This document shows positions 1-37,367 of a stretch of DNA of 64,000 bases, piece after piece. The DNA is from Escherichia coli (GTDB taxonomy: Bacteria; Pseudomonadota; Gammaproteobacteria; Enterobacterales; Enterobacteriaceae). Under the pieces are notes generated by a model, which saw only the letters and a program-made list of their open reading frames with translations, was not told the origin of the DNA and did not search any database. Position numbers and translations under genes: made by a program. Positions within the stretch are counted from its first letter, which is position 1; each line of letters opens with the position of its first letter. The stretch is taken from the NCBI RefSeq assembly GCF_044647545.1, contig NZ_CP172818.1. One strand, given 5' to 3'.

Positions 1-325
1 AAAAATTTTCTTCCTGCATCAAGAAAAATATTATCTTACAATTTGGGCCAAATAAATTTAGAAATCGTGACAAGGCAAATGAATTAATTAGAATCTTAAT
101 TTCACAAAACAAAATATTTATATCTTCATGGGGTAAAACAAAAATAATAAACATAACTCATTGTGTTTTTTGATTTTAATGACAATCTAAAAGGACTTAA
201 TTTAAGAGTAAAAACAAACTCTAAACCCAGTTCGGATAAAAGCTTGTCATCTTGATAGGTAATATATAGGTACATAGACACATCAGAACGATCACTTACT
301 CCAATATCATTGGCCAGGATACTAT

Positions 326-952
326 ATGACATACGATAGTGAATTCGGATCACATGTATCCCTATATCGGGATAGAATCAAACAGGTTATTGATGACTCC
401 CTAAACGAACATCTTAACTCAATGATTCTACGTGTTGATCTGCATGACCCAATTGATACAGAAAATATGGATAACCCATTCTTTCAACCCAGGGTTGACT
501 CTGGTGCTATATCTCGCTTTACCAGTGCGTTAAAAGCAAAGCTTAAACATGATAAGCATATTAAAACTCAACGGAAAGACTGGCCTGATAGTCGACATTC
601 CACTTTACGTTACGCATGGGTCAGAGAATATACCAAAAATAGAAAGCGGCATTACCATTTGATACTGTGTTTCAATCAGGATGCTTATTATCATTTAGGT
701 GATTACGACTTAAACCGTAACACGTTACGTACAATGATAACGACAGCTTGGTACAGTGCACTTGGCATCCCTATAGATAGCTCGGGGAAGTTAGTTAATT
801 ACCCGCCAAATGGCAAATACCTTCTCAATCGTAAAAGGGACAACTTTGAGCAGACTTATAGCGATTTGATGAATAGGGTGGATTACATGACCAAAGTAAG
901 GACTAAAATAGTCGGTGACGGAGACCGTAATTTCGGCTGCAGTCGCGGGTAA
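326..952 (+). CDS. yfjJ: YagK/YfjJ-family prophage protein (inovirus Gp2-like), 208 aa
   Basis: Intact 208-aa ORF; ATG at 326 with AGGA 6 nt upstream; recognised as the YfjJ/YagK family from the protein sequence; lies in the prophage-like island. Confidence 0.6.
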   Translation: MTYDSEFGSHVSLYRDRIKQVIDDSLNEHLNSMILRVDLHDPIDTENMDNPFFQPRVDSGAISRFTSALKAKLKHDKHIKTQRKDWPDSRHSTLRYAWVREYTKNRKRHYHLILCFNQDAYYHLGDYDLNRNTLRTMITTAWYSALGIPIDSSGKLVNYPPNGKYLLNRKRDNFEQTYSDLMNRVDYMTKVRTKIVGDGDRNFGCSRG

Positions 953-970
953 TTTATTTTTTACAACAAT

Positions 971-1007
971 GGCCTTTCTTATGGCTGGAAAGGCCTGATT
1001 TGTTTGT
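971..1007 (+). terminator. Stem-loop plus T-tract after yfjJ
   Basis: GGCCTTTC...GAAAGGCC stem followed by TGATTTGTTTG, directly 3' of the yfjJ stop. Confidence 0.5.
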
Positions 1008-1129
1008 ATTAAGATATCGGTAATCTTTTGATGGTTGGAAGCCCGTCCTGGTAGACGACCTAGCCTACCGAAGATGTGAGTTATTCAAAAATGTCGCTTT
1101 CCCGCGTTCCGTAGACAAACGTACCTAAA

Positions 1130-3319
1130 TCAATGTCGTCTAATACCGAGCGCGCGCCTGATAAACATCTGATCAACGTACCCAATCGATCTACTCCAAA
1201 TGTCCTGAGTATCCCGAAGATACTGGCTCAACTCATCCACATCAGCCTCGTCGGAAAATTCCAGCAAGTCTACCAGTCGGTGTAACGTCTGAATGGGAAT
1301 GCCAATCTCTTCTAAGGCATTGACACCTGGTGGTAGATGGAAACTTTCGAACGCCAATTTGACATGTGTGTAATCGACTTTGCTGCGTATACCACGCTTT
1401 ACAGCGTGGTGTTTAACTACATCCTCCATCAAGCTGAGCACCTTAGGTAGGGTATAGCCGAAGGTATTGGTTATGAGCTTCAAATCATTGTTGAGGGCAA
1501 TGGAAAGAGTACGTTTCTCCCCTTCAGAAATCCACTGTCGTGCATAATCGATCTGATTTTTCAGATATTCCGAATAACTTTCAGCACTTAAATAGCCGGC
1601 AAGTTTTGCGATCATGACATCCGTAGGCTTAACAGGGACCCCATTGCGACTGAACGTATGGGGAACCAGTCTGGCAATGATCTTTGCAAAGGTCTTGAGG
1701 AAGTTTGTCGCGGGAGTCCAGTGAAACACTAACGAGGAAAATTCGTTATCGTCCATCATCTCGAACATGCTTTGCAGCATTTCGAACTGCTCGACACGGA
1801 AGTACGAATGCTTCTTCACAAGGTCGATGGAAACACGGTCGTTTATGAAAACCTCATCAAAGCGATCCTGTGAAAACTCGGACAAGTGGTCTGGTTGAAC
1901 GCTGGCTAACAGGTTGATTGGGGTATCAATGCCCTGAATACCGAGCGGAATATCCACCTCTTGATTGAGATTGTCTTCCGGGATTTCCTCCAGGCAAAAG
2001 ATTTTGCCGACGAAGTGAACGCCCATGCGCCCGGCGCGACCTTTGATGTTCCCATGGGTGAATTTGTCAATGCTGCGAGTTCCATCGCGGTTGTCGTAGA
2101 TCACAACGTTCTTAGCGATAGTGTTGACTCCTTCAATGATCGTGGAGGTGCAGAGCAAAAAGCGCAGTTTTCCAGCATTGAATTGGTCGGCAGTGTATTG
2201 CTGCAGTGCCCTCGGTAGCGCGCCAAAATGCAAGCCAATACCGTTTCTAAGGGCGACTGTGTAATCCCAGTCGGCATCGAACTCTTCGCTGACCCAGTCG
2301 ACATGGGGATTCTCAGTCGGAGTGCCATGCCCAAGCCTGATCAGCTCGCGCGCCACCAGGCCCGCAACAGTTGGTGACTTGCAATAAATGATCGTTGCGT
2401 CGACACATGCGTGCGCGATTTCCCCCAGCGCTTTGAGCTTGGCTTTGTCGTCATTCGCTTTGATGCCGAACGTCTTAACATCTAGCGCGACTGTATTGAA
2501 GTCGGTAGAAACGAAAGTATGCGGATATCCAAGTTTTTCGAGACCGCGAATGCTGTTAACGAACGGTCCCGTCAGGTAAAACTGCCTGGAGACCTTAAGC
2601 AGTTTGCTTAACGCAATGTTGAGCTCGATGACTCGTTCGTCTTGATGATCAATGTCCCCGCTTTTCAGTTGTCGGAACGCCAACTTGTAAAACTCGTCAA
2701 TGACGAAGAGGTCAATGTCGACGATGTCGTCACGCTCGTTCACTCGCTCCTGAGTTAACACATAAACAGCCTGATCGGAATGGCACACTTGGGAACTGTG
2801 GTGGATGATCTGATATCGGTCACCGAATCGCTCTTGCAGTCGGCGACGGGTTTCGTCGGCAAGAGCCACGGTTGGAACAACCAGAACAAGCCGTTTCAAA
2901 GTTCCCATGCCGAGCAATGAATCGACGATTGCACTTTTGCCCATGCTTGTAGGTGCACTCAGCACCACGTTTTGACCAGACTTGAGCAGATCGAATATGT
3001 GGAACTGCATTGAGTGGAAAACATAACCATCCGAGAATGGCGTCCGGTATAGCTCAAGCACCCTCAGGTCATCCGGTGTCAGGCTGGTGAACTCCTTTTT
3101 GAGATACGGGAACAAACCTGATTTTCTCACCATATTTTTCAAAATTGTGGTGTGCTCGGAAAACCGCTCGCGCGAATCGAGAGCTCGCACGATCAAGTCC
3201 CGTCCCAAGTCATACGAAACAGGGTTAGACAACAGCTTGTTAACCGCAAACAGATAATTGAACGATGAGAAGTCCTCACCCTGCAGGCTATGTTTCGCCT
3301 GTTCATAGATCTCTGTCAT
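1130..3319 (-). CDS. yfjK: SF2 DEAD/DEAH-box helicase, 729 aa (probable AbpB)
   Basis: 729-aa ORF; Walker A APTSMGKS, DExx-like VIDEF, helicase C-terminal motifs TSTIIEGVN and GRAGRMG visible in the translation; overlaps upstream yfjL by 4 bp. Confidence 0.85.
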   Translation of the reverse strand: MTEIYEQAKHSLQGEDFSSFNYLFAVNKLLSNPVSYDLGRDLIVRALDSRERFSEHTTILKNMVRKSGLFPYLKKEFTSLTPDDLRVLELYRTPFSDGYVFHSMQFHIFDLLKSGQNVVLSAPTSMGKSAIVDSLLGMGTLKRLVLVVPTVALADETRRRLQERFGDRYQIIHHSSQVCHSDQAVYVLTQERVNERDDIVDIDLFVIDEFYKLAFRQLKSGDIDHQDERVIELNIALSKLLKVSRQFYLTGPFVNSIRGLEKLGYPHTFVSTDFNTVALDVKTFGIKANDDKAKLKALGEIAHACVDATIIYCKSPTVAGLVARELIRLGHGTPTENPHVDWVSEEFDADWDYTVALRNGIGLHFGALPRALQQYTADQFNAGKLRFLLCTSTIIEGVNTIAKNVVIYDNRDGTRSIDKFTHGNIKGRAGRMGVHFVGKIFCLEEIPEDNLNQEVDIPLGIQGIDTPINLLASVQPDHLSEFSQDRFDEVFINDRVSIDLVKKHSYFRVEQFEMLQSMFEMMDDNEFSSLVFHWTPATNFLKTFAKIIARLVPHTFSRNGVPVKPTDVMIAKLAGYLSAESYSEYLKNQIDYARQWISEGEKRTLSIALNNDLKLITNTFGYTLPKVLSLMEDVVKHHAVKRGIRSKVDYTHVKLAFESFHLPPGVNALEEIGIPIQTLHRLVDLLEFSDEADVDELSQYLRDTQDIWSRSIGYVDQMFIRRALGIRRH

Positions 3320-4932
3320 ACGACCTCTCTCACCTTCTCATCAACTAATTGGGTTAACCGCTCAAGACTCGGGGCTGGATAAATGAATACGTGGATGCAA
3401 AGATTCGCAAACGGCGAATCCTCGATGAGGTCAGCCGCGAATTTTTCGAACAGCACCGCTGTTTCTTTCTCCAGGTCATCCTCGAACCCCGGCGTTTCAG
3501 GCTCGGTTAGTAGATTAGAGTCGTAGCCCACGAACAGAACAAACGTGAAACGATCGAGGTGAGCATCGAAAGGTTGGCTGCCATCAAGAATTTCGTCAAT
3601 GTCGTGGCGAAGCAGGTAGTTATCGTCTTTAATGTCGAGGATTTTTTTGCGCGCGGTATCGATGCAATCCGAAATGTCCTCGTACAACTGATCCCGTATC
3701 TCCGGCAATCTGACGGCAATGTTAATATCAGTCACCAACTCGCTGAAGCCAATCCAAAGCTGATCACCTTCTGGATCGCGGCGAACGATATGCACGTTTT
3801 CAAGAATTTTTTCGGCCCCTGCTTTTTCCACGTATAGCATGCAAGGAATAGGCTGGCTTTCGTGGTGCTGCCGGATCGTTGCGTGCAACAGCACTCGACC
3901 CAAAAATTCGCTGACGTCATGGAGCGATTTGAAGACGGAATTCTTTAGTCGTTCTCGCTTTTCAATGAATGTCAGTTTATGAATATCAGACATTTCTTTT
4001 GGTCGGAGAAAAACCTCATCCAACCATTGACAGACGTTATCCGCGATGTGCTTGTAGCGGTATTTCTTAAGTGAGTACTGCTGATGTAGAACCTGGCCTT
4101 TACGCTTAGCGCAGACCGAAGCCATAGGCGCTCTAAATGGCGTAAGGATGTGGGGTAAGTCCCGTTTGACGTAGATTTTGCGGCCTGACCGAGATTGGTC
4201 ATCTTCGACACGCTGCTTGAACCACTCAAGTAGGTCTGGTCGTAAGTAGGACTTGTCATCAGCACTGTGAATGCGTCGAGAATGCTCGCCCTTGCGCGTC
4301 ACAGTATCAAGGATGCGGCACCAAATGTCTTCGGCGACGGTTTCGGAACTGAGAATGACCCCATGTAGATCTTGGGAGGCCAGCCGTATGTTCTTGATCC
4401 CTAGAAGTTCCAGTTCGCGCAGGGATGAAAACACTTCCCATGTAGCCGCATCGATCCAATCTGAAACGCTTATACCTGAGTCTGTTAAAAAATTGTCTGT
4501 GCGTTTGTTGAGGTCATCGATGAGTTCCTGTCGACCTGGCTTATCTAGTCGGGCGTTTGGGCTGATCGTCAAGTACTCAAGGGTTTTGTTGACCTTTTCC
4601 TCTGTGACGATGGAGTACCTACGTCCAAGGGACAGGTCAGACTCACACTGCATTGATTTGTGCAAAATTGAACTGCAGGGGATCGTCTTTTTATCAGCAC
4701 CTTTTGAATTCTGAACGATGTCCGAAATGTTCCAACGTGTTTTGCCGGTGCTTTTTACCTGAACGAAGTCGATGTATCCATCAGATACAATGTCGATATC
4801 GTCTGTGACCTCGCAGCGCACACTGCGGATAGTCTTGTCACGAAGCATTCGGGTGACATGGTAAGCGGCTACGCAGTCCTGAAATAAGAAACCGTGCTTG
4901 GCGGCTACTCCGCCTGAATCGTTCGACTCCAT
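3316..4932 (-). CDS. yfjL: Helicase-partner protein, 538 aa (probable AbpA)
   Basis: 538-aa ORF whose stop overlaps the yfjK start (3316-3319), indicating translational coupling; length and sequence match my recollection of YfjL. Confidence 0.8.
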   Translation of the reverse strand: MESNDSGGVAAKHGFLFQDCVAAYHVTRMLRDKTIRSVRCEVTDDIDIVSDGYIDFVQVKSTGKTRWNISDIVQNSKGADKKTIPCSSILHKSMQCESDLSLGRRYSIVTEEKVNKTLEYLTISPNARLDKPGRQELIDDLNKRTDNFLTDSGISVSDWIDAATWEVFSSLRELELLGIKNIRLASQDLHGVILSSETVAEDIWCRILDTVTRKGEHSRRIHSADDKSYLRPDLLEWFKQRVEDDQSRSGRKIYVKRDLPHILTPFRAPMASVCAKRKGQVLHQQYSLKKYRYKHIADNVCQWLDEVFLRPKEMSDIHKLTFIEKRERLKNSVFKSLHDVSEFLGRVLLHATIRQHHESQPIPCMLYVEKAGAEKILENVHIVRRDPEGDQLWIGFSELVTDINIAVRLPEIRDQLYEDISDCIDTARKKILDIKDDNYLLRHDIDEILDGSQPFDAHLDRFTFVLFVGYDSNLLTEPETPGFEDDLEKETAVLFEKFAADLIEDSPFANLCIHVFIYPAPSLERLTQLVDEKVREVV

Positions 4933-5190
4933 TTAGACATCCGTGACAATTTTGCGAAAATTAAGGAGATGTTATGACACAGTCCAATCGGATCACTGCA
5001 TCATCACCAGTGATCTAAATACTTCACAGCCATTCTCGGTCGCAGGTATCAAGCTTTTCAGGATTCCACAAATATTGTAACCCTGACGTCTAATTTGGTT
5101 ATATAACATACTGCCCCAACTAACGTAAGGTAGGCACAGCCTTAATCAAGGTTTTGGTTTTCAAATAGTTCAGAGCTGAGACCGCCAACC

Positions 5191-5238
5191 GCACTATGGC
5201 ACTATGGCACTATGGCACTATGGCACTATGGCACTATG
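5191..5238. repeat. Tandem repeat (GCACTATG) x6
   Basis: Six perfect head-to-tail copies of an 8-bp unit read directly, between yfjM and the yfjL upstream region. Confidence 0.95.
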
Positions 5239-5291
5239 GCACCGCCAGCGATTGTAATCACACTTGATATTATAAAACACAGTTGCACGCA

Positions 5292-5555
5292 TTATTTCCT
5301 GGTTGGTAGGGTCATATCTCGATGCTCTTTGAGCAATGTCAACATCGCGTGTTCATGGCTTTCTATATTGTTGATGCCTTGCCCATCCGGACCCCACTCC
5401 TTATAGCTCATCATGATGGCTTGTTTTGGGCTCTCTGCTCGTTCTGTTTCGACGTAGAATTTTTTCTTGTCTGCTGGCGAATAATTACTAAGTATCGAGT
5501 TGCTGCTTGGTGAGATCAGGAAGAGGTTACCGAAACGATGGACATCATCCCCCAT
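5292..5555 (-). CDS. yfjM: Small prophage protein, 87 aa
   Basis: 87-aa ORF in the expected position between yfjL and rnlA; length matches YfjM; coding status not independently supported. Confidence 0.5.
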
Positions 5556-5696
5556 TTTGTGGACTGCCCCCCCGGTAGACGATCCTGCCCTATAGTTGGA
5601 GTGCCCCCTATTCAGGTGGCTAAATTTAGCAAATCAATACACTTCAGGGGGGTATTATTGTAGAGTTTCCCCATATGTTTCTATGGGATCCAGGAA

Positions 5697-6770
5697 ATGA
5701 CAATCAGGAGTTACAAAAACTTAAATCTGGTCAGGGCAAATATCGAGACTGAATCCAGACAATTCATTGAAAATAAAAACTATTCAATCCAATCAATTGG
5801 TCCTATGCCAGGGTCAAGGGCTGGGCTTCGGGTCGTATTTACCAGACCAGGGGTTAACTTGGCAACTGTGGACATTTTTTATAACGGGGACGGTTCGACT
5901 ACAATTCAATATCTCACTGGAGCCAATCGTTCTCTGGGCCAAGAGTTAGCGGATCATCTTTTTGAAACCATCAATCCTGCTGAATTTGAGCAGGTAAATA
6001 TGGTACTGCAAGGATTTGTAGAGACAAGCGTTCTACCTGTACTTGAGCTATCAGCAGATGAATCGCATATAGAGTTCAGAGAACACTCTCGTAACGCTCA
6101 TACCGTAGTGTGGAAAATTATTTCCACCAGCTATCAGGACGAATTGACTGTGAGCCTGCATATCACAACAGGTAAGCTCCAGATTCAGGGCCGACCGCTG
6201 TCATGTTACAGAGTTTTCACGTTTAACTTGGCAGCCCTGCTTGATTTACAGGGTTTGGAGAAAGTGCTAATCCGCCAGGAGGATGGTAAAGCTAATATTG
6301 TTCAACAGGAGGTTGCCCGCACTTACTTGCAGACTGTAATGGCCGATGCTTACCCGCATCTCCACGTGACTGCCGAAAAATTGCTCGTTTCAGGGCTATG
6401 TGTTAAACTCGCCGCCCCTGATTTGCCTGACTACTGTATGTTACTTTATCCTGAACTACGCACCATTGAAGGTGTCTTAAAAAGTAAGATGAGTGGGTTA
6501 GGCATGCCAGTACAGCAGCCGGCAGGTTTTGGAACTTACTTTGATAAACCTGCTGCTCATTACATTCTGAAACCGCAATTTGCAGCTACTCTTAGACCGG
6601 AACAGATTAACATCATCAGCACAGCCTATACTTTTTTTAATGTGGAACGTCATTCTCTGTTCCACATGGAAACTGTGGTCGATGCCAGCCGTATGATTTC
6701 TGATATGGCCCGGTTGATGGGTAAAGCCACTAGAGCGTGGGGAATAATCAAGGACTTATATATTGTTTGA
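5697..6770 (+). CDS. rnlA: RnlA toxin (RNase LS), 357 aa
   Basis: 357-aa ORF recognised as RnlA; followed by an overlapping small antitoxin gene. Confidence 0.9.
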   Translation: MTIRSYKNLNLVRANIETESRQFIENKNYSIQSIGPMPGSRAGLRVVFTRPGVNLATVDIFYNGDGSTTIQYLTGANRSLGQELADHLFETINPAEFEQVNMVLQGFVETSVLPVLELSADESHIEFREHSRNAHTVVWKIISTSYQDELTVSLHITTGKLQIQGRPLSCYRVFTFNLAALLDLQGLEKVLIRQEDGKANIVQQEVARTYLQTVMADAYPHLHVTAEKLLVSGLCVKLAAPDLPDYCMLLYPELRTIEGVLKSKMSGLGMPVQQPAGFGTYFDKPAAHYILKPQFAATLRPEQINIISTAYTFFNVERHSLFHMETVVDASRMISDMARLMGKATRAWGIIKDLYIV

Positions 6771-7134
6771 AATCACCGGAATTAACGTCTCAGGGGCTCT
6801 AAAAGCTGTCGTTATGGCGACCGGCTTCGAGAACCCTTTGTCCTCAGTTAATGAAATTGAGACGAAACTTTCTGCCCTACTGGGTAGTGAGACCACTGGT
6901 GAAATCCTTTTTGACCTCTTGTGCGCTAACGGTCCAGAGTGGAACCGCTTCGTTACGCTGGAAATGAAATATGGCCGGATCATGCTGGATACGGCCAAAA
7001 TTATTGATGAGCAGGACGTTCCGACACATATCCTGAGCAAACTGACTTTTACTTTACGTAATCATCCTGAGTACCTAGAAGCCTCTGTTTTGTCTCCCGA
7101 TGATGTACGCCAAGTCCTGTCAATGGATTTTTGA
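6763..7134 (+). CDS. rnlB: RnlB antitoxin, 123 aa
   Basis: 123-aa ORF overlapping the rnlA 3' end by 8 bp, the typical type II toxin-antitoxin arrangement. Confidence 0.85.
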   Translation: MFEITGINVSGALKAVVMATGFENPLSSVNEIETKLSALLGSETTGEILFDLLCANGPEWNRFVTLEMKYGRIMLDTAKIIDEQDVPTHILSKLTFTLRNHPEYLEASVLSPDDVRQVLSMDF

Positions 7135-7435
7135 AACTCTTCTTTCTAAACGAACCAGTATAGAATTCGCCCTTTTGGCATGATATTAACTTGTCCAATA
7201 TGATCAAATAGCATTAACCCCCCCTCACAACGTCCTGCATAGGGAACACGTTTTCCCCTGTGCACCCACGACTAAATTTCCCCCCCTTTAAACTTCTCAA
7301 TAATGTCACCAATTTTCTGGAAATCCTATGATGCCTTTCCCGGTAAATGGTGCTGTGAGTTCAGAAAGATTCTGCAATCTATGTGCATTGAAAAAATCTT
7401 CAGATAGATATCATTCTCCTGAACAATCCGATGAA

Positions 7436-7470
7436 CGGCAGAACCTCGCGGTTCTGCCGTTTTTGTTTTA
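7436..7470 (+). terminator. Terminator-like hairpin in the yfjP leader
   Basis: CGGCAGAAC...GTTCTGCCG stem followed by TTTTTGTTTTA, about 20 nt upstream of the yfjP RBS; a diverged copy recurs at 15269-15300. Confidence 0.5.
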
Positions 7471-7488
7471 CTTTTCAGAGGAGTGGTG

Positions 7489-8352
7489 ATGAAAAATTTT
7501 GAAGTTCTGCAGCCACTACAGAACTCCCTTTCCGGTCTACCGCTATGGGTATCTGAACGTATATTGCAGCAGATAAATCAGTTAACCCACTACGAGCCAG
7601 TGATCGGCATCATGGGTAAAACTGGGGCGGGAAAGAGTAGCCTTTGCAATGCCCTGTTTGCCGGTGAAGTATCGCCGGTCAGCGATGTAGCGGCCTGTAC
7701 ACGTGATCCTTTACGCTTTCGCCTGCAGATTGGAGAACACTTTATGACCATCGTGGATCTGCCCGGCGTGGGCGAAAGTGGCGTTCGCGATACCGAGTAT
7801 GCTGCGCTGTACCGCGAACAACTTCCCCGGCTCGACCTGATTCTGTGGCTGATTAAGGCTGATGATCGGGCACTGGCGACTGATGAGCATTTTTACCGTC
7901 AGGTGATTGGCGAAGCATACCGGCATAAGATGCTGTTTGTTATCAGCCAGTCAGACAAAGCTGAACCCACCAGCGGTGGAAATATCCTTTCCACAGAGCA
8001 GAAACAAAATATCAGCCGCAAAATCTGCCTGCTGCATGAGCTATTCCAGCCCGTGCATCCGGTGTGTGCCGTGTCGGTTCGCCTGCAGTGGGGACTAAGG
8101 GTGATGGCAGAGCGGATGATTAAGTGTCTGCCGCGTGAGGCCAGCAGCCCGGTAGTAGCGCTACTGCAACATCCCTTTCGAACAACGGTAGCCCGGGAGC
8201 AGGCACGTGACGATTTCGGTGAAACCGTAGGTGCCATACTCGATACGGTAAGCACCTTTCCCCTTATTCCCGCCCCGGTGCGGACCATTATTCAGGCCGT
8301 GCGTTCCTCGGTGGTGTCAGTGGCCCGCGCTGTCTGGGATTTCTTCTTCTGA
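7489..8352 (+). CDS. yfjP: Prophage GTPase, 287 aa
   Basis: G1/Walker A GKTGAGKSS and G3 DLPGVG motifs; ATG at 7489 preceded by GAGGAG (the listed ORF begins 6 nt earlier at an in-frame GTG). Confidence 0.85.
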   Translation: MKNFEVLQPLQNSLSGLPLWVSERILQQINQLTHYEPVIGIMGKTGAGKSSLCNALFAGEVSPVSDVAACTRDPLRFRLQIGEHFMTIVDLPGVGESGVRDTEYAALYREQLPRLDLILWLIKADDRALATDEHFYRQVIGEAYRHKMLFVISQSDKAEPTSGGNILSTEQKQNISRKICLLHELFQPVHPVCAVSVRLQWGLRVMAERMIKCLPREASSPVVALLQHPFRTTVAREQARDDFGETVGAILDTVSTFPLIPAPVRTIIQAVRSSVVSVARAVWDFFF

Positions 8353-8443
8353 GTGTTTAATTCTGCCCTATTATTCTCCGAGCCCTGTCGCAAGTGCGGC
8401 AGGGCTTTCTTTATTTGTTTTACCCATACTGAGGAGTCTGCTT

Positions 8444-9263
8444 ATGACCCGTCTGGCTTCGCGCTTTGGCGCTGCAAACCAGATACGCCGTGACCGTCCG
8501 CTGACACATGAAGAACTGATACGCCATGTACCCAGTATTTTTGGGGAAGACCGGCACATCCCGCAGTGAACGGTATGCGTACATTCCCACCATTACCGTC
8601 CTGGAAAATCTGCAGCGGGAAGGCTTTCAGCCGTTCTTCGCCTGCCAGACCCGTGTGCGCGACCCGGGCCGCCGGGGATACACAAAACACATGCTGCGTC
8701 TGCGGCGGGCCGGAGAGATAAACGGAGAACATGTCCCTGAAATTATTCTGCTCAACTCTCATGACGGTACCTCCAGCTACCAGATGCTGCCGGGTTACTT
8801 CAGGTTCGTCTGCCAGAACGGGTGCGTCTGTGGCCAGTCTCTGGGGGAAGTGCGTGTTCCACACCGGGGAAATGTAGTGGAGAAAGTTATCGAAGGGGCT
8901 TACGAGGTGGTGGGCGTGTTTGACCGGATAGAGGAGAAGCGTGATGCCATGCAGTCGCTGGTCCTGCCGCCACCGGCACGCCAGGCGCTGGCACAGGCGG
9001 CACTGACTTACCGTTATGGTGACGAACATCAGCCCGTCACCACCGCCGACATTCTGACGCCGCGACGCCGGGAGGATTACGGTAAGGACCTGTGGAGCGC
9101 ATATCAGACCATCCAGGAGAATATGCTGAAAGGCGGGATTTCCGGTCGCAGTGCCAGAGGAAAACGTATCCATACCCGGGCCATTCACAGCATTGATACC
9201 GACATTAAGCTCAATCGCGCATTGTGGGTGATGGCAGAAACACTGCTCACGCAACTGCAGTAG
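8444..9263 (+). pseudogene. yfjQ: DUF932-family protein, frameshifted near codon 41
   Basis: ATG at 8444 with GAGGAG RBS encodes MTRLASRFGAAN... for 41 codons, then TGA at 8567-8569; the remaining 245 aa continues in the +1 frame; total span 820 nt is not a multiple of 3. Confidence 0.65.
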
Positions 9264-9479
9264 ACGTTTCATGTTGCCACGTTGTTAATATCGGACACCA
9301 CCTGTCCGCATCGCTATGTGCTCGTGTGCCTCAATCCCCCGGTTATAGCTTTTAACCCCCGTTACATCTGGCTTTTGCAGAAATAAAAAATAGTTTCTGC
9401 GTTGTCCATACCCTGTCCGCCCCCCTCTTTAAAGTAATCACATCATTTTCAGTCAGTTAACTTTCCTGGAGAATCTCTC

Positions 9480-10181
9480 ATGACACAGGCAGAACGCCGC
9501 CATGACCGGCTGGCTGTCAGGCTGTCACTGATAATCAGCCGTCTGGTTGCGGGTGAAACGTTGAGCGTGCGCAAACTGGCGGCTGAGTTTGGCGTGTCAG
9601 TGCGCACGCTGCGGCGTGATTTTCGTGAACGACTGATGTATCTGGACCTGGAGTATCAGTCCGGATACTGCCGCTTACGCACTGCTGGCAGTGAGATGCA
9701 GATGGTGCCCGACGTGCTTATCTTTGCCCACCGCAGCGGGCTGGCCGGGCTTTTTCCCGGCCTTGACCGCCGTCTGGTGAATGCACTGCTGATGTGCGAT
9801 GAGTCTCCCTGCGTGATAGCACCAGCCAATCCGGTTCCTTCGCCTTCAGGAGCATTGTCTTTCTGGAGACTGATTCAGGCCATTACCGGGCGCAGGCGGG
9901 TGACGCTGATTGCAGAGGGGCGACGCTGTGAGCGCCTAGCTCCCTGCCGGTTACTCATCCACCAGCAGACCTGGTATCTGGTGGCTGAACACGAAGGGCA
10001 TATCGCCGTATTCACACTTGATGAAATCCATCTGATTCAGCCTTTGCAGGAGACTTTTCGCCGCAATGACAGTCTGTGTCGCCTGGTTGAAGACCCGGTC
10101 TTCATTCAGGCCTTACCCCATTTTCGCTTTATCCAGCATTCACTGCTTACGTTTGTTCCGGCCGACAGCCCACCGGAATAG
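9480..10181 (+). CDS. yfjR: HTH plus WYL-domain transcriptional regulator, 233 aa
   Basis: N-terminal HTH-like segment ([21 protein letters not shown]) and a WYL motif ([11 protein letters not shown]) visible in the translation. Confidence 0.85.
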
Positions 10182-10221
10182 CGCAGGCGTTGTTATCAAC
10201 CCGGCAACATGGAGGAGCCCA

Positions 10222-10458
10222 GTGCCCGTTATTGCCATTATCGCCATTGTTATCATCGTCATCATTCTGAACAAAACCGGAGTGTCCGACAGCCTCACGG
10301 CCCTGACACTTGCAACCGTTGCCGCACTACTGACGGGAGGTGGTGCAGCCGGTGCTGCCAGTGTCGCGCTGACGCCGTTCGTCGGCGTGCCGGTGGGTAT
10401 TTTTGTGGGAATTTATGTCTTTGCCAAAGTGGTTCGTCTGATTTCAGGGAAAAAATAA
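10222..10458 (+). CDS. ypjK: Small hydrophobic membrane protein, about 78 aa
   Basis: GTG start at 10222 preceded by GGAGGA; two hydrophobic segments; stop overlaps the yfjS start (TAATG). Confidence 0.55.
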   Translation: MPVIAIIAIVIIVIILNKTGVSDSLTALTLATVAALLTGGGAAGAASVALTPFVGVPVGIFVGIYVFAKVVRLISGKK

Positions 10459-10901
10459 TGAAACGTAAAACACTACCTCTGCTGGCGCTGGTTGCCACCT
10501 CTCTGTTTCTGAGCGCCTGCGATGACAGGAGTGATGACCTCAAAGCTATCAGTAAATTTAAGGACCTCACGCCCCCGCGCTTCAGCGATGTGGTCAGCCG
10601 TCAGGATGATGTCAGCGAAGAATGGTCACAGGTTGGCTTCTCATCCGGTCTCACCCTGCAGGTCTTACGTACCCGTGAGTCGCCCGATGGTTGCGAGGGT
10701 GGCAGTTACTACTATCTGGTAGATATGGAGGAGAAAACCGTCCAGCCGCTGATGAATGCGCTTTGTATTGCCGACAATATCAAACTGGAATACCACGAAG
10801 TTACGGACCCGTATACGAAAGAAAAATACTTCGAATATTCCCATGACGGCAAACTGATGGGACGGCTGCTGATACCGTCAAACCCTGATAACCGGGAATA
10901 A
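10458..10901 (+). CDS. yfjS: Lipoprotein, 147 aa
   Basis: Signal peptide with lipobox LSAC; ATG at 10458; the longer listed ORF from 10209 is an upstream extension in the same frame. Confidence 0.8.
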   Translation: MKRKTLPLLALVATSLFLSACDDRSDDLKAISKFKDLTPPRFSDVVSRQDDVSEEWSQVGFSSGLTLQVLRTRESPDGCEGGSYYYLVDMEEKTVQPLMNALCIADNIKLEYHEVTDPYTKEKYFEYSHDGKLMGRLLIPSNPDNRE

Positions 10902-10924
10902 AAACAACGAGAAAGGAGACATAA

Positions 10925-11392
10925 ATGAAAATACGTTCACTAAGCCGGTTTGTACTGGCAAGTACAATGTTCGCCAGCTTTACAGCCTCTGCGGTCCCCG
11001 GACTCTGGCAACAGGGGTACGGTCAGGGCAATGCGGAATACAGTGTGACGGATGCCAGCGGAAAGATGTTTACCATCAACTGCACGGGAAATCCGGACCA
11101 GAACGGTATTTACCAGCACTCGGTTTTTCTGATCCTCGCCGGGGATAAAACGGTCAGCTCGCATGATGACAGTACCGGCATCACAGTGGTGATGGACCAT
11201 AAGCAATATGCCATTCCCTCAACCCTTGGCTGGCGTAACGGAGATAATGCCTGGTTCAGCTTCATCATGGATATCCGTAAGGCCCGGCAGTTCGACGTCT
11301 ACGTCAATGACCAGAAAGTTGGATCGTTTAACCCTGATGTTCGGAATGCACAAAAGGTCCTGCCAACATTAGCGGACTGCACTAACGACTGA
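10925..11392 (+). CDS. yfjT: Secreted/periplasmic protein, 155 aa
   Basis: Intact ORF with N-terminal signal peptide; RBS GGAGA upstream. Confidence 0.8.
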   Translation: MKIRSLSRFVLASTMFASFTASAVPGLWQQGYGQGNAEYSVTDASGKMFTINCTGNPDQNGIYQHSVFLILAGDKTVSSHDDSTGITVVMDHKQYAIPSTLGWRNGDNAWFSFIMDIRKARQFDVYVNDQKVGSFNPDVRNAQKVLPTLADCTND

Positions 11393-11787
11393 CGGCTGCG
11401 CCTTCCCTACCATAACAACCCTGATTGCCTCCGGCGGTCGGGGGTTTCTTTTTTCTCCTTAATCTCCAGAGGTAGGCCACGTACTTTCGAACGATGAGCG
11501 CAGTGGTCAGTTTTTTTCAGATATATTTATCTTTTTTTGGCTGTAAGCTCCGCTGTGAGCGCAGGCTGTGTGAAAACTCCTGATCACTTCTTGGTCTAAG
11601 CGATGGTTTCATATGATCAACCATTCTTGATAAACCCATGCGACGAACTGACTTTTTCATTAAAATTAGAAATATACGAATGAATACTGCGGATACCGAC
11701 ATGGCCAATCACATTCAAGGACAAGGCAGGCACCAGGTGACATTACTCCCTGATGCACTGGATGATTTTGTCACTGAAGATAACTTA

Positions 11788-11931
11788 AGTAAGTTTAATC
11801 AGTTCATCACGGGTCGGTGGCATATCGAGATAATTAATTATTGTCGGTTCGTTGCCGTTGTTATGAAGCATCTCCAGCGTGTTGCGTGAGGTGCCACAGG
11901 CCGGGTTGTGATAGATGGTAATGTTGCTCAT
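11788..11931 (-). pseudogene. Arsenate reductase ArsC N-terminal fragment (47 codons)
   Basis: Reverse-strand translation MSNITIYHNPACGTSRNTLEM... matches the ArsC N-terminus and then hits a premature stop. Confidence 0.7.
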
Positions 11932-11943
11932 ATCAGTATCTAA

Positions 11944-12935
11944 TTACAAAGTGACAGAGAGCCGCCACGCCAGCGCGGCCAGAGTGACAAACAGCACCGG
12001 CACAGTCATGACAATGCCGGTACGGAAGTAATATCCCCAAGTGATTGTCATATTTTTCTGGGCAAGCACATGCAGCCACAGCAGAGTTGCCAGACTGCCA
12101 ATCGGGGTGATTTTCGGGCCTAAATCACAGCCAATCACATTGGCATAAATCATTGCCTCTTTGACGACGCCAGTCGCCGTACTCCCGTCAATCGACAGCG
12201 CACCAATCAGCACCGTCGGCATATTGTTCATCACTGATGAGAGAAATGCCGTCAAGAAGCCGGTGCCGAACGTCGCTGCCCATAACCCCTTGTCTGCCAG
12301 CAGATTCAGCACGCCAGACAGGTACTCCGTGAACCCTGCATTGCGCAGGCCATAGACCACGATGTACATGCCCAGTGAGAAAATAACGATCTGCCATGGC
12401 GCACCGCGCAGGACTTTTCCGGTGTTGATCGAATGACCTCTTTTCGCCACCACAAACAGCACTGCTGCGCCAGCGGCCGCTATCGCACTGACCAGGATTC
12501 CCTGCGGCTCCAGAAAGAAGAAACCGACAAGCAGCAATAACAGGACAATCCAGCCCGCCCTGAAGGTTGCCAGATCCTTGATCGCACTGGCAGGCGTCTT
12601 CAGCAGCGAAACTTAATACGTTGCCGGAATAACTCTGCGAAAGAAGAGATACAGCATAATCAGCGTGGCCGCAATCGCTGCCGCATCCACGGAGATCATA
12701 ACGGAGGCGTACTGCGCAAAGCTCAGACCGAAGAAGTCCGCCGAGACGATATTCACCAGGTTAGAAACAATGAGCGGCAGGCTGGCCGTATCTGCAATAA
12801 ATCCTGCAGCCATGACAAAGGCCAGTGTCGTGCCCTGGCTGAACCCAGTGCGATCAGCATCGCAATCACAATCGGCGTCAGGATCAGCGCGGCGCCGTCA
12901 TTGGCAAACAACGCATCAACAGCGGCACCGAGCAA
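11944..12935 (-). pseudogene. Arsenite efflux pump ArsB, N-terminally truncated and frameshifted
   Basis: Three reverse-strand ORF fragments (197, 66 and 60 aa) in different frames, all ArsB-like membrane sequence; the N-terminal roughly 100 aa is missing where AT-rich DNA begins. Confidence 0.8.
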
Positions 12936-13094
12936 GACTTTCCAGGTGAACAGCGCTCTAGGTAGGAACTTTGTCGTTGATAGAGTCTTCAGCCATCAAC
13001 ACTGTATCGAGTAATGAAATTGGTTGCTAGAAAGTCGATGATTTGTTGCGTATGATTAAAAATCAACCTTAAAGGCTTTATACATGGATTTGCT

Positions 13095-14798
13095 ATGGCT
13101 TTTGTATCAGAAAGAGAAATTGTAAGAAAGATATTTAGCAAAAAAATTGACTTTACGATCTTGGCATTTTTCTATATTTCCTCTATTTTTTTTCTTCTTT
13201 GTAGTGGCGTTCTCTTTCAATATTTTACCGCTGCCTTCACAAAAGGTAATTGTTATGAATGCTCAATGAAACTTGATTACATAAAACAATTTTATTTTTC
13301 ACTGGAAACCGCATGGTACCTCATATCTGCTGTTGCAGTATTTATTGCATCTGTTTTTATACAGCATAGAATTAAAGCTTATTTAACATTATTAGCTATT
13401 ACATGGATTGTACTAACAATAACAGATGTGGCGTTAATACACGCCTTAGACAATATAGCCATGAATAATATTTTGTTAAATATACTATATAATCTTTTTG
13501 GGGCGATTTTATTGTCACTGTTTATGTGTTTATCAAATTCCCTCCTTTTCCACCTTAATAAGATAAAACATATTCCAATGATTTTATCGGCAATGATTCC
13601 ATTAGTTTCCGCAATAATAATAGCCATACTCATAACCGCTGTTATATATTTATTGTTTGCCCGGCAGGCGGTAGAGATTGAGATGGATATATCTGAAGGT
13701 TCAGACATCGCATATGTAGGTGTAAAAGATAATGAGGAATCATTTGGGTTTTTAAATGATAAAAAAACAGACACACCAACGTATCTGGATGTAATCAAAA
13801 ATGGTAGTTTGATATATAATGATACACAGGGTTTAAGTGGTGCTGATATTTATATTGTCTCCGGTTGTTATGCCCTTCCAGATTTACTTCGCAATGTACC
13901 GCTTGATGCTAAAAAATCTTTTCTGAATGTAAAAAAGCTAGAAATCACACAGAAACTTCCAATGATGGGGTTCATACAAGGTGAATCCGCTGATGTGATG
14001 CCTAAAGCAGCATCCAGGTTAAGTTTGAGCAAGCAAGATGATAAATTTATGCTAGCCTCAAGTGTTACTGACTCTCAAATAAAATTTAAATCAAACAATG
14101 CACAATTGATGGTTGCTTTCGCATTTATGCCAATAACAACGAATGGTATTTTACATGATTATACATACGATATAATAATAAATGATAAAAAATATAAAAT
14201 TGAAAATCATGTTGCACCTCTATCTAGGCTTGATAAAAATAAGAAGATGAAGTGTGAATACCAGCAAATATCGGATTTAACAAATACGTATAACATTAAT
14301 GCAAATTACTTAACGGGTTTTTTACTTGTCCTAAAACCAGATGATATTATTAATTACAACAATAGCCCTTCCGTACTACTCAAGACTGATTTTGCGTTCT
14401 ATAAAAAAACATACCAGAAGCTTGATAAAATATATGATGACATAAGCAATGGAAAATTATCTTCACTGAGAGCAACAGGTATCTCCCAGTTTAGTATCAA
14501 CGGGAAACATTTGTCGTTAAGGCCAGAATCGGAGATTATTATTTCTGAAGGGAGTTTGTATGGACTAGTTAATAAAAGCAAAAAAATCAAAATATATGGC
14601 ACAGCAGATCTTGTTTTTGTTGATAACAAGATAATGAACCTTCGTAAAATAACTTATTTGCAATCTAAGCTAGAAATTTTTGGTTCTTCTATTATGGATA
14701 TATTAAAGTATATATTTGGTTTAGGTCTGCTAGCAATTTCTATAAAATTCATTCATTCTTACTTTAAGAATGATGTGAATGAAAATTTATTCTTGTAA
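13095..14798 (+). CDS. yfjW: AT-rich inner-membrane protein, 567 aa, function unknown
   Basis: 567-aa ORF; strongly hydrophobic N-terminal about 190 aa followed by a hydrophilic Asn/Lys-rich domain; very low GC. Confidence 0.75.
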   Translation: MAFVSEREIVRKIFSKKIDFTILAFFYISSIFFLLCSGVLFQYFTAAFTKGNCYECSMKLDYIKQFYFSLETAWYLISAVAVFIASVFIQHRIKAYLTLLAITWIVLTITDVALIHALDNIAMNNILLNILYNLFGAILLSLFMCLSNSLLFHLNKIKHIPMILSAMIPLVSAIIIAILITAVIYLLFARQAVEIEMDISEGSDIAYVGVKDNEESFGFLNDKKTDTPTYLDVIKNGSLIYNDTQGLSGADIYIVSGCYALPDLLRNVPLDAKKSFLNVKKLEITQKLPMMGFIQGESADVMPKAASRLSLSKQDDKFMLASSVTDSQIKFKSNNAQLMVAFAFMPITTNGILHDYTYDIIINDKKYKIENHVAPLSRLDKNKKMKCEYQQISDLTNTYNINANYLTGFLLVLKPDDIINYNNSPSVLLKTDFAFYKKTYQKLDKIYDDISNGKLSSLRATGISQFSINGKHLSLRPESEIIISEGSLYGLVNKSKKIKIYGTADLVFVDNKIMNLRKITYLQSKLEIFGSSIMDILKYIFGLGLLAISIKFIHSYFKNDVNENLFL

Positions 14799-15268
14799 CG
14801 CATTTGGCTCCAATTGGAGCCTTTTTATGACTATTTATTAAAATATCCTAAGTTAAGCCTGTTTTTAAAGCAGGCTTGAGCGTGAAGCGGACACTCATAC
14901 CTGCTTTAAAGTGGCGTTTTTGTCGTTACCCATACCTATATTTTCTGTTGTTTAACTGCCAGAACTGAGCGGTTGAAAAGCCAGAAATATGCCGAGCCAG
15001 CGGCATGGAAGCGCCAGCAGCTGTTGAATGGAGTACTGTAGGCAAATGGTGCCGTAACCGGCTTTCGTACTGAAAGGTTCTGTCTATCCCATCCCTTCTC
15101 TTGTATCTAACATTTAGTTGTGAATAGCTACTGTAAATGCCCCTACAAAATGAACCATTATTTTTAGAGGGCGTCTGGCACTCCAACTTCCGCTTTTGGC
15201 ACAGAACGGCCTATCAGCAATATAAAAGCATTCAGATATATATCATTTCTACAAACATACCCGATTAA

Positions 15269-15300
15269 CGGCAGAATCTCAGGATTCTGCCGCTTTTTTA
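15269..15300 (+). terminator. Terminator-like hairpin, second copy of the yfjP-type leader
   Basis: CGGCAGAATC...GATTCTGCCG stem plus T-run; flanks align with 7399-7492. Confidence 0.45.
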
Positions 15301-15321
15301 TTATTTTTCAGGGGAGTAGTA

Positions 15322-15695
15322 ATGAGCAACTCTGAAGGTTGGTAGTCATTTTAGCAAACGCTTTCTGGTCTGCCGCAGTGGGCATCGGCTGATTGCGTAG
15401 CAGGGCCACTGGTATCTGCCGGTATCACCGACATTAACATTGAAGACGACCAGGGCATTCACGTCCGCCTGATAGTTCGTGATGCCGAAGGTCGGATGGT
15501 TGGCGGGCATGGAACTTTGAACCGGACGCCGGTGAAGGTTTTAACCGCTATATCCACAGGTCAGGCATCCGCACCGACACCTTCCCCCGCTGACTCCGAA
15601 TCATTTACCAGCAACATTTCACCTTCCCAAACGCGCTTTATTACCTCATACGCCAGCCATCGCCGCTGGCGTTTTTTATTCACGGAGACATACCC
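15322..15695 (+). pseudogene. Degenerate remnant beginning with a yfjP-like N-terminus
   Basis: ATG after the duplicated leader gives MSNSEGW then stop; downstream frames retain ...QTLSGLPQW..., resembling YfjP residues 12-20, but no intact ORF. Confidence 0.4.
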
Positions 15696-16154
15696 ATGAC
15701 AACACAGACACAGTACGACCTCGTACCCGCTAACGGATCCGAATTTGAGTTGAGCGTAACGCAGGTACCCGATGAACAGCATATCCGCTTCTGGCCGCAG
15801 CACTTTGGCACCATCCCGCAGTGGATAACGCTGGAACCGCGCATTTTCGCCTGGATGGACCGCTTCTGTGATGAGTACTGCGGGGGTATCTGGTCCTTTT
15901 ACACGCTCAGCAATGGCGGAGCGTTTATGGCTCCTGATGCTGACGGTGACGATAAATGGCATTTGCTCAACGGCATGAATGGCAATGGTGCGGAAATGAG
16001 CGCGGAAGCCGCAGGTATCGCTGTCTGCCTGATTGAATATAGCCATCACGCCTGCCTCACCGAATGCGATGCCATGACGGAGCACTATTACCGCCTGCGG
16101 GATTACGCTCTGCAGCACCCTGAATCCAGCGCCATTATGCGCATTATTGATTAA
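15696..16154 (+). CDS. yfjX: Antirestriction protein (ArdB/KlcA-like), 152 aa
   Basis: 152-aa ORF recognised as YfjX-family antirestriction protein. Confidence 0.85.
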   Translation: MTTQTQYDLVPANGSEFELSVTQVPDEQHIRFWPQHFGTIPQWITLEPRIFAWMDRFCDEYCGGIWSFYTLSNGGAFMAPDADGDDKWHLLNGMNGNGAEMSAEAAGIAVCLIEYSHHACLTECDAMTEHYYRLRDYALQHPESSAIMRIID

Positions 16155-16162
16155 GGATACTC

Positions 16163-16645
16163 ATGATGGAACAGTCACTCATCCCACAGACACCGGTACT
16201 TCCACTGACCGCACAACGCACGGTAAAACGCGCCTTAACGCTGCTTGACCGACACCTGCGCGAAACAGGCGTGGCATTCACCTCCACTCAGGCTGCTCGT
16301 GACTGGCTGAAGCTGAAAATGGCGGGGCTGGAGCGTGAAGAATTTATGATGCTGTATCTGAACCAGCAGAACCAGTTGATTGCCCACGAAACCCTGTTTG
16401 CCGGTTCTATTAGCAGTACCGAGGTACATCCCCGTGAGGTGGTCAAACGCGCCCTGTATTTCAATGCAGCAGCAGTGATACTGGCGCATAACCACCCCTC
16501 CGGCGACACTACTCCCAGCCAGGCAGATAAGACTATAACGCAGCGTCTGGTGCAGGCGCTTCAGCTCGTTGATATCCGTGTCCCTGACCATCTGATTGTT
16601 GGTGGCAGGCAAATCTATTCGTTCGCAGAACACGGTCTGCTTTGA
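16163..16645 (+). CDS. yfjY: RadC-like JAB-domain protein, 160 aa
   Basis: JAB/MPN metal-binding motif HNHPSGD visible in the translation. Confidence 0.85.
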   Translation: MMEQSLIPQTPVLPLTAQRTVKRALTLLDRHLRETGVAFTSTQAARDWLKLKMAGLEREEFMMLYLNQQNQLIAHETLFAGSISSTEVHPREVVKRALYFNAAAVILAHNHPSGDTTPSQADKTITQRLVQALQLVDIRVPDHLIVGGRQIYSFAEHGLL

Positions 16646-16854
16646 GGTATTACATGAGAATTATCAGTAAACGCCGGGCAATGACGATATACCGCCAGCA
16701 TCCTGAGTCCCGAATCTTTCGCTACTGCACCGGAAAATATCAGTGGCACGGTAGCGTCTGTCATTACACCGGCAGGGATGTTCCGGATATCACAGGAGTC
16801 CTGGCTGTGTACGCCGAACGCCGCAGGACCGCAGCGGACCGTATGCTTGACTGA
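16642..16854 (+). CDS. ypjJ: DUF987 small protein
   Basis: Small ORF overlapping the yfjY stop by 4 bp; conserved position ahead of the toxin-antitoxin pair; exact start uncertain. Confidence 0.65.
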   Translation: MRYYMRIISKRRAMTIYRQHPESRIFRYCTGKYQWHGSVCHYTGRDVPDITGVLAVYAERRRTAADRMLD

Positions 16855-16891
16855 TGAGTATCACCCTGAACTGACAATAAAGAGGTTATGA

Positions 16892-17209
16892 ATGAGCAAC
16901 ACCACATGGGGCCTGCAGCGAGATATCACGCCGCGCCTGGGAGCACGTCTGGTGCAGGAGGGCAACCAGCTGCACTATCTGGCTGACCGGGCCAGTATCA
17001 CCGGTAAGTTTAGTGACGCCGAATGTCCTAAGCTGGATGTGGTATTTCCACATTTTATCAGCCAGATAGAGTCGATGCTGACCACTGGTGAACTGAATCC
17101 CCGCCATGCCCAATGCGTCACCCTGTACCACAACGGTTTTACCTGCGAAGCCGATACTCTTGGTAGTTGCGGCTACGTATACATCGCTGTTTACCCCACT
17201 CAACGCTAA
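16892..17209 (+). CDS. yfjZ: CbeA-family type IV antitoxin, 105 aa
   Basis: 105-aa ORF recognised as YfjZ/CbeA family; immediately upstream of the cognate toxin. Confidence 0.85.
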
Positions 17210-17229
17210 CTAATTTCACGAGAGCAAGC

Positions 17230-17559
17230 ATGAACACTCTACCTGCTACAATTTCGCAGGCGGCGAAGCCCTGCCTGTCGCCAGTGGCTGTCTGGCAAAT
17301 GCTACTGACACGCCTGCTGGAACAACACTATGGCCTGACACTGAACGACACGCCGTTCAGTGATGAAACTGTTATTAAGGAACATATCGATGCTGGTATC
17401 ACTCTGGCCGATGCAGTCAATTTTCTGGTGGAAAAGTACGAACTGGTACGTATCGATCACAGAGGATTTTCGTGGCAACAACAGTCTCCATATATTTCCG
17501 TAGTAGATATTCTGCGAGCAAGGCGCTCTACCGGCTTGCTAAAAACTAATGTGAAATAA
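17230..17559 (+). CDS. ypjF: CbtA-family type IV toxin, 109 aa
   Basis: ATG at 17230 ([10 protein letters not shown]...); the listed ORF has an N-terminal extension. Confidence 0.85.
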
Positions 17560-17923
17560 ACGCTTAAATACAGAGCAGACTGAAGGAAAGCAAAATGCTA
17601 ATCTCATAGACGAAGAGACTCCCGCTGTAACCTCCCCTCCCCCGAAAAAACCTGACATTTTCTTTTAGGACCAACAATGGGACCAAAATGAAAATTGAAC
17701 TGAAGATTACAATCAATTTAACAACAAGTTACACAACCAATTCAACTCCCGCCAGCTCCACCAATCATGATTGGACGGTGTAAGGACAACACCAATAAAA
17801 ACAGGAAGTTAGCAGTCTCAGCAGGACACCGACCAGACGGTGAGGAGACAAAAAAGGATACGCAAAGGAGCCGCGGCCCCTGGTGATATGAAAGCCCACA
17901 GATGTGGGCTTTTTCGTTGATGG

Positions 17924-37067: not shown

Positions 37068-37367
37068 ATGACTGAACTCGCGCAATTACAGGCCAGTGCC
37101 GAACAGGCAGCGGCCTTATTGAAAGCAATGAGCCACCCTAAACGATTGCTGATTCTGTGCATGCTTAGCGGTTCCCCCGGCACCAGCGCGGGAGAGCTGA
37201 CTCGCATTACCGGACTGAGTGCCTCTGCGACATCACAGCATCTCGCTCGTATGCGGGACGAAGGGCTTATCGACAGCCAACGGGATGCCCAACGCATTCT
37301 ATATTCCATTAAAAATGAGGCGGTAAATGCCATTATCGCCACCCTGAAAAATGTCTATTGTCCGTAA
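37068..37367 (+). CDS. ygaV: ArsR-family transcriptional regulator, 99 aa
   Basis: HTH ArsR-like sequence; operon with ygaP. Confidence 0.85.
   Translation: MTELAQLQASAEQAAALLKAMSHPKRLLILCMLSGSPGTSAGELTRITGLSASATSQHLARMRDEGLIDSQRDAQRILYSIKNEAVNAIIATLKNVYCP

Follow-up and report, generated by a model that had tools for sequence, protein, structure and literature searches.

A non-functional arsB-arsC operon relic at the yfjU/yfjV locus of a CP4-57-family island in Escherichia coli

Introduction

What is the broken arsenic-resistance sequence that lies within a genomic island of the Escherichia coli strain analyzed here, and how did it come to be there? The DNA that we analyzed, referred to below as the window, is a stretch of 64,000 nucleotides from contig NZ_CP172818.1 of assembly GCF_044647545.1. 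A previous sequence-only reading, made without database searches, had described positions 11788-12935 as a decayed arsB-arsC operon, a fossil overwritten by AT-rich DNA that marks an internal recombination junction of the island. From the analysis reported below, we are confident that this feature is a relic, no longer functional, of an arsH-arsR-arsB-arsC operon of the plasmid/island type that was once cargo after yfjT in an ssrA-integrated, CP4-57-family island, and that it corresponds to yfjU and the yfjV pseudogene of E. coli K-12.

Results

We found that the window contains a single contiguous piece of an ars operon on the minus strand, at 11785-12954, which runs from arsB codon 94 to the arsB stop codon, through a 12-nt spacer, and into arsC codons 1 to 48. 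Alignment to an intact ars operon was one of the checks that the sequence-only reading had proposed. When window positions 12954-11780 were aligned to positions 3870-5045 of the reference operon (L005, plasmid p16005813A), in which a divergent arsH is followed by arsR, arsB (429 aa), and arsC (141 aa), the fragments were collinear with arsB-arsC at 94.8% nucleotide identity, with a single 1-nt gap. In the terms of the intact operon, the relic retains arsB from nt 279 to the stop codon, the native spacer, and arsC from nt 1 to about nt 147. The arsB pseudogene (11944-12954, minus strand) is the counterpart of K-12 yfjV' (b2641) and holds codons 94 to 429 of 429 with the natural stop; the arsC 5' fragment (11785-11931, minus strand), the counterpart of K-12 yfjU (b2638), has 48 codons followed by TAA and is without residues 51 to 141. 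Since the native 12-nt spacer between them (11932-11943, minus strand) is preserved in the collinear alignment with intact operons, the arsB and arsC fragments represent one contiguous operon piece.

Protein-level searches gave the same picture. The open reading frames on the minus strand are a 48-codon frame at 11931-11785 and ArsB-like pieces at 12935-12753, 12813-12613, and 12537-11944. In tblastn searches with intact queries, ArsB residues 130 to 429 matched at 94.3% identity (E 7e-167), ArsB residues 92 to 134 matched in a second frame (E 1.5e-13), and ArsC residues 1 to 47 matched at 89% (E 1e-24). The Pfam ArsB profile PF02040 matches all three ArsB-like pieces (E 9e-69, 3e-19, and 2e-8), covering profile positions 98 to 419 of 423, and the largest piece aligns to positions 232 to 425 of 426 in NCBIfam with 314.5 bits, under the TIGR00935 cutoff of 415. 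Homology to the ArsB family (PF02040; TIGR00935/NF011980) is therefore present, and a complete frame of ~429 codons with the full set of transmembrane segments is absent, as is the operon context of an upstream arsR repressor and promoter. The tblastn searches detected no arsR, arsH, arsB 5' end, or arsC 3' end anywhere in the 64-kb window. The lone ArsR-family match in the window, at 37104-37304, is weak (30% identity to the plasmid ArsR) and unrelated to the relic; it is probably a resident ArsR/SmtB-type regulator.

The proposal of a decayed arsB-arsC operon in the island is thus borne out, with both minus-strand fragments identified far beyond chance by tblastn, Pfam, NCBIfam, and DNA alignment. 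The interval first proposed, 11788-12935, falls short: the homology extends from 11785/11787 to 12954, the earlier reading having gone no further than the last ORF piece and its TTG.

Several lesions separate the relic from intact genes. As the reading had recognized, the ArsB N terminus is gone: codons 1 to 93 (nt 1 to 278) are missing. The sole frameshift is a 1-nt deletion at 12843-12845 (minus strand; plus-strand CCC versus CCCC in intact genes), at arsB nt 390, and an in-frame TAA at 12613-12615 (minus strand) replaces the GAC codon for Asp207. The pieces at 12613-12813 and 11944-12537 share one reading frame and are parted by this TAA, so the ArsB sequence, which had been described as split across three frames, consists of three ORF pieces in only two frames. 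The arsC frame was said to stop at codon 47; residues 1 to 47 do match ArsC, but the ORF has 48 codons and ends at a TAA at 11785-11787, which is codon 49. The arsC fragment reads MSNITIYHNPACGTSRNT and retains the HNPACGTS motif with the catalytic Cys12. It matches positions 1 to 47 of 141 in the NCBIfam model for glutaredoxin-dependent arsenate reductase (NF007456), with scores against the full-length ArsC models (NF007456/TIGR00014) of 88.6 bits for a cutoff of 242 and 56 for a cutoff of 106, and the full 141-residue fold is not present. Its Pfam Glutaredoxin score is 24.1 bits, compared to a cutoff of 22.9. R773-type ArsC proteins have an Arg60/Arg94/Arg107 triad region, which is absent from the 48-codon fragment. 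Judged from these lesions, the relic is predicted to confer no arsenic resistance.

We also found nothing that pointed to a second function for the region on the other strand, in the other frames, or in the Rfam, promoter, and terminator scans. Pfam detected no domains in antisense or alternative-frame ORFs of the region, the Rfam scan of the region returned no family near its gathering score, and in the scan for an excess of promoters and terminators, promoter-like sites were not enriched.

The relic locus is that of yfjU (b2638) and yfjV' (b2641) in E. coli K-12 MG1655, flanked by yfjT and yfjW in the cryptic prophage CP4-57, an identity that the sequence-only reading had missed. The window shares with the K-12 locus the site between yfjT and yfjW, both breakpoints, and a near-identical sequence. 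In a base-by-base comparison, window positions 11790-12954 are 100% identical to K-12, with 0 differences continuing on to 17744; positions 1-20000 are 98.4% identical to MG1655 with gene order unchanged, and the differences at the locus itself are 16 substitutions, all within 11572-11789. The 2-kb region was matched end to end in 362 of 5,426 complete E. coli genomes, essentially all of them K-12 derivatives. The NC_000913.3 annotation lists yfjV as a pseudogene and yfjU as a CDS of 104 aa, "putative arsenate reductase-like protein." PGAP calls the arsC piece a partial glutaredoxin-domain pseudogene and the arsB piece an arsenic transporter that is [quoted passage not shown] The fossil ars operon is thus a real feature, and an ordinary one that was catalogued before in K-12, where yfjV' has served as a neutral pseudogene integration site (PMC3467084). 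As a pseudogene pair known from the best-annotated bacterial genome, the relic counts for little beyond housekeeping. What our analysis adds to the K-12 annotation is the exact lesions and breakpoints, an IS1182 relic at the arsC end, and a portable yfjW cassette at the arsB end; further additions are an intact counterpart operon in a sister island, that of E. coli B379, and a strain-specific allele of the IS/arsC junction that is probably derived by conversion.

At its arsC end, the ars piece is fused to the left-end relic of an IS1182-family element (11546-11784, plus strand), which comprises the terminal inverted repeat (~11546-11579), the 5' leader, and transposase codons 1 to 28 (ATG at 11701) and is cut internally at 11784. 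The left end of an intact IS1182-family element matches window positions 11559-11784 at 99.6% identity, and over positions 11562-11784 the two are 100% identical. We found the intact element in 82 genomes of E. coli (e.g., SWHEFF_68, NZ_CP055022.1); its transposase passes NCBIfam NF033551 (423.6 bits versus a cutoff of 270), and its pair of inverted repeats was found in the intact copy. The window relic, in contrast, holds 239 of about 1,790 bp and has neither a DDE domain nor a right inverted repeat, so it cannot transpose. No right end of the element was found within the window. The outer end of the relic is uncertain and could lie anywhere from 11546 to 11562, E. coli I4 sharing IR-like sequence up to about 11560. 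In I4 (L016, ~5060-5082), there is no IS, yet a 16-nt sequence like the outer inverted repeat stands where the window relic begins (11546-11561); this sequence may be what is left of a solo IR, or it may be a site that the IS prefers as a target.

Since the IS1182 element is cut internally, the break on the arsC side is not an IS-end junction. This left junction (11780-11789) joins the IS interior, on the side of transposase codon 28, to arsC codons 48 to 50. The K-12 crossover falls within a 3-nt microhomology, ATA/TAT (11780-11782; ATA on the plus strand), with the surrounding sequences being GAAGATAAC for the IS and CCCATATCTG for the arsC reverse complement. This microhomology would fit an illegitimate deletion that removed the remainder of the IS and arsC codons 51 to 141. 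K-12 YfjU is composed of ArsC residues 1 to 50 followed by 54 residues of antisense-IS1182 read-through.

At the arsB end, the last arsB-homologous base is 12954 (nt 279), and cassette DNA begins at 12955; locating this breakpoint relative to yfjW, the other check proposed from the sequence, places it at 12954/12955, upstream of yfjW and 140 bp from its start codon (ATG at 13095). The GC content drops here from 53% in the relic to 31.5% in an AT-rich cassette of 1.9 kb (12955-14844, plus strand), which contains yfjW (13095-14798) together with its upstream region and a terminator hairpin and which occupies the place of the arsB 5' end, arsR, and arsH. The cassette is 88 to 91% identical at the nucleotide level to sequences in Mangrovibacter (L015) and in Logan contigs L017 and L018. 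All three of these relatives have their right end at 14844, and the left ends map to 12947-12974 (12947, 12972, and 12974). To the left of the cassette lies an IS21 element in Mangrovibacter and, in L017, an IS3-family element no more than about 2 nt from the arsB breakpoint; immediately to its right, two of the three relatives (Mangrovibacter and L018) have a tyrosine recombinase gene. A tblastn search found no tyrosine recombinase remnant downstream of yfjW in the window. A microhomology of up to 4 nt (CAGC) is possible at this right junction, where the sole relative that reaches so far, L017, has the end of the IS3-family element. YfjW homologues (44 to 93% aa identity) occur in Mangrovibacter, Serratia, Klebsiella, Salmonella, and Enterobacter; YfjW has no match in Pfam, NCBIfam, or PADLOC, and some sources name its homologues "DUF1761 domain-containing."

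The coincidence of the arsB truncation with the left terminus of the cassette suggests that arsB codons 1 to 93, arsR, and arsH were lost when the cassette arrived or through a deletion at its end. The description of the operon as overwritten by AT-rich DNA thus applies to the arsB end, which does adjoin 31.5% GC DNA, but not to the arsC end, which is fused to the IS1182-family relic; and because the cassette is discrete and has a common right end, the overwriting was most likely an insertion, or a deletion at the cassette end. Likewise, the break that had been proposed as one internal recombination junction is real, but there are two junctions.

Beyond the cassette, the backbone common to other islands (the DUF905/antirestriction module) resumes only at about 15254-15442. 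The intervening sequence of about 410 bp, at 14845-15253, was found only in K-12-type genomes. The slot after yfjT in CP4-57-family ssrA islands is thereby seen as a layered junkyard of IS1182 relic, ars relic, yfjW cassette, and ~400 bp of further DNA.

The closest relatives of the ars relic are intact operons on plasmids and in another island. A megablast search of PLSDB matched 344 plasmids, the best matches being arsB-arsC on plasmids of Leclercia, Enterobacter, and Klebsiella (about 95% identity, with 99% of the query covered), and the plasmid arsH-arsR-arsB-arsC operons (e.g., p16005813A, NZ_MK036891.1) are collinear with the relic at ~95% nucleotide identity. These operons are intact and regulated, with arsR and a divergent arsH, whereas the window copy is truncated and frameshifted and has an internal stop. 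E. coli B379 (NZ_CP090456.1) has an ssrA-integrated island with intA, alpA, yfjJ, and yfjP-, yfjQ-, and yfjR-like genes, as in the island family of the window, and this island carries an intact arsH-arsRBC operon that is 94.1% identical to the remnant at the nucleotide level and has a like orientation to the backbone. The B379 operon sits between yfjJ and yfjP, whereas the window relic lies after yfjT, and we rejected B379 as a positional ancestor because its operon is in this different slot. In E. coli I4, a yfjP-yfjT backbone is followed by unrelated cargo, with homology to the window ending at about 11545-11561. Together, the I4 and B379 layouts indicate that the slot after yfjT is variable and that this type of ars operon is recurrent cargo of the island family. 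The B379 island (L012, 1-26091) also holds a flagellin gene, TnpB, two group II introns, and several IS elements; its contents show heavy remodeling of the island family, in a sister island where the ars operon type occurs intact.

We considered whether the remnant could instead be a decayed duplicate of the E. coli chromosomal arsRBC operon. The K-12 chromosomal operon has a like gene order, its arsBC matches the reference operon in more than 4,700 genomes, and both it and R773 arsRDABC have the ArsB permease and glutaredoxin-coupled ArsC families in common with the relic, the likeness of R773 being one of family. However, the nucleotide identity of chromosomal arsBC to the reference operon type is only about 79%, compared to ~95% for the remnant, and the nearest relatives of the remnant are arsH-arsRBC operons on plasmids or islands, namely, those of other genera and that of the B379 ssrA island. 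We therefore rejected a chromosomal duplicate on the basis of identity and think such an origin extremely improbable compared to horizontal acquisition of the operon as cargo.

Four intact operons, themselves 93 to 98% alike, match the relic at identities of 94.9%, 94.5%, 94.1%, and 91.8%. The remnant-specific branch has 22 changes that are nonsynonymous or create a stop, against 13 synonymous ones, compared to 20 and 57, respectively, in the four intact lineages together (Fisher P = 3e-4), which shows relaxed constraint on the remnant. The interpretation of the region as a fossil operon thus stands: the piece is collinear with an intact arsB-spacer-arsC, the rest of the operon is missing from the window, and the piece carries a frameshift, stops, and an excess of nonsynonymous changes.

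The 16 substitutions that distinguish the window from K-12 also distinguish it from BS-04, its closest relative, which has the K-12 allele at the junction. All of them fall either in the IS1182 relic or within the first 5 nt on the arsC side, and they render 11562-11784 100% identical to the active IS1182, while the outer inverted repeat (11546-11561) is still of the K-12 type. The last three changes, at 11783, 11786, and 11789, are spaced at 3 nt and yield both the TAA stop and a perfect 8-bp palindrome, ACTTAAGT (11783-11790); the two on the arsC side, 11786 and 11789, are not templated by the IS. The nearest active IS to the K-12 version of the relic is ~94% identical. Because PLSDB has no active IS nearer to it than its best match of 93.8%, the K-12 relic looks old and decayed rather than like a second IS variant. 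The window junction allele was not found in the 5,426 complete E. coli genomes, and a degenerate 41-nt pattern for the window allele or an intermediate one gave 0 matches in IMG/VR and 0 in GTDB species representatives; in JGI/ENA metagenomes, the degenerate pattern gave 6 matches, all 6 of them the K-12 allele.

Discussion

How the window strain came by this junction allele can be given only a tentative answer. We propose, as a possibility a little short of even, that an active copy at another place in the genome "refreshed" the old IS1182 relic to 100% identity through gene conversion, with the tract ending at the IS/arsC fusion in the mutation cluster at 11783, 11786, and 11789. The competing explanation is that the allele, meaning both the IS1182 identity and these three changes, is an assembly or consensus artifact, such as would arise if reads from an active IS1182 were recruited to the relic. 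Its absence from every database searched (complete E. coli genomes, GTDB representatives, IMG/VR, and JGI metagenomes), the K-12 allele in BS-04, and the lack of an IS template for both arsC-side changes would all be in line with such an error. However, the converted tract halts where IS homology halts and leaves a K-12-type outer inverted repeat, as gene conversion predicts, and exactly this IS is in circulation in E. coli as active copies. In addition, the strain has other clear patches of recombination relative to K-12, in yfjQ (8479-9222) and ypjA (17745-19316), which indicate that mosaic exchange is normal for it. Taking this evidence together, we consider an artifact unlikely. If gene conversion did occur, the locus would be a natural case in which a dead relic was rewritten by an active IS and in which repair at the edge of homology was error-prone or involved a template switch, and it would show incidentally that the 104-aa YfjU ORF of K-12 is dispensable.

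The junction allele also bears on whether the YfjU fragment is a functional small protein, thioredoxin-fold or arsenate reductase-like, as the K-12 CDS entry implies. In favor of such a protein are the retention of a 104-aa CDS in NC_000913.3, the HNPACGTS motif with Cys12, and a Pfam Glutaredoxin score above the cutoff. On the other hand, only residues 1 to 50 of YfjU are derived from ArsC, the other 54 being translated antisense from the IS1182 relic; the fragment scores far under both cutoffs for full-length ArsC; the region of the three arginines is gone; and PGAP labels the fragment a partial pseudogene. In the window, the YfjU frame is interrupted by stops at both codon 49 and codon 63, compared to a 104-codon read-through in K-12, so the long ORF is not conserved even among near-identical islands. 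The conversion and two adjacent point changes appear to have closed the K-12 read-through in the window strain. We therefore think a functional YfjU highly improbable, and the breakage of its frame in a close relative argues for annotating yfjU as a pseudogene fragment rather than a CDS.

Our view of how the two truncations arose, and in what order, is inferred from their end-points, and the history that they suggest is as follows. An IS1182-family element would have inserted downstream of arsC or within its 3' part, and an illegitimate deletion through the 3-nt microhomology would then have joined the region of transposase codon 28 to arsC codon 50, with the loss of most of the IS and of arsC codons 51 to 141. 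The promoter-proximal part, arsH, arsR, and arsB codons 1 to 93, would have been lost at the left terminus of the yfjW cassette, by its insertion or by an associated deletion. With no promoter, regulator, or intact ORF, the remaining piece would have drifted neutrally, and later, in the window strain, the IS1182 relic may have been overwritten from an active copy. Neither intermediate that this history predicts, an intact IS next to arsC or a longer arsB next to yfjW, was present among the 5,426 complete E. coli genomes.

Two other patches set the window apart from K-12. The yfjQ patch has about 225 differences from K-12, including indels, and the K-12 start frame is disrupted; the longest yfjQ ORF in the window starts at 8526 (245 aa), and yfjQ of BS-04 is annotated as a pseudogene with an internal stop. 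The recombination-like patch in ypjA has about 70 differences from K-12, and its start coincides almost exactly with the right end annotated for CP4-57.
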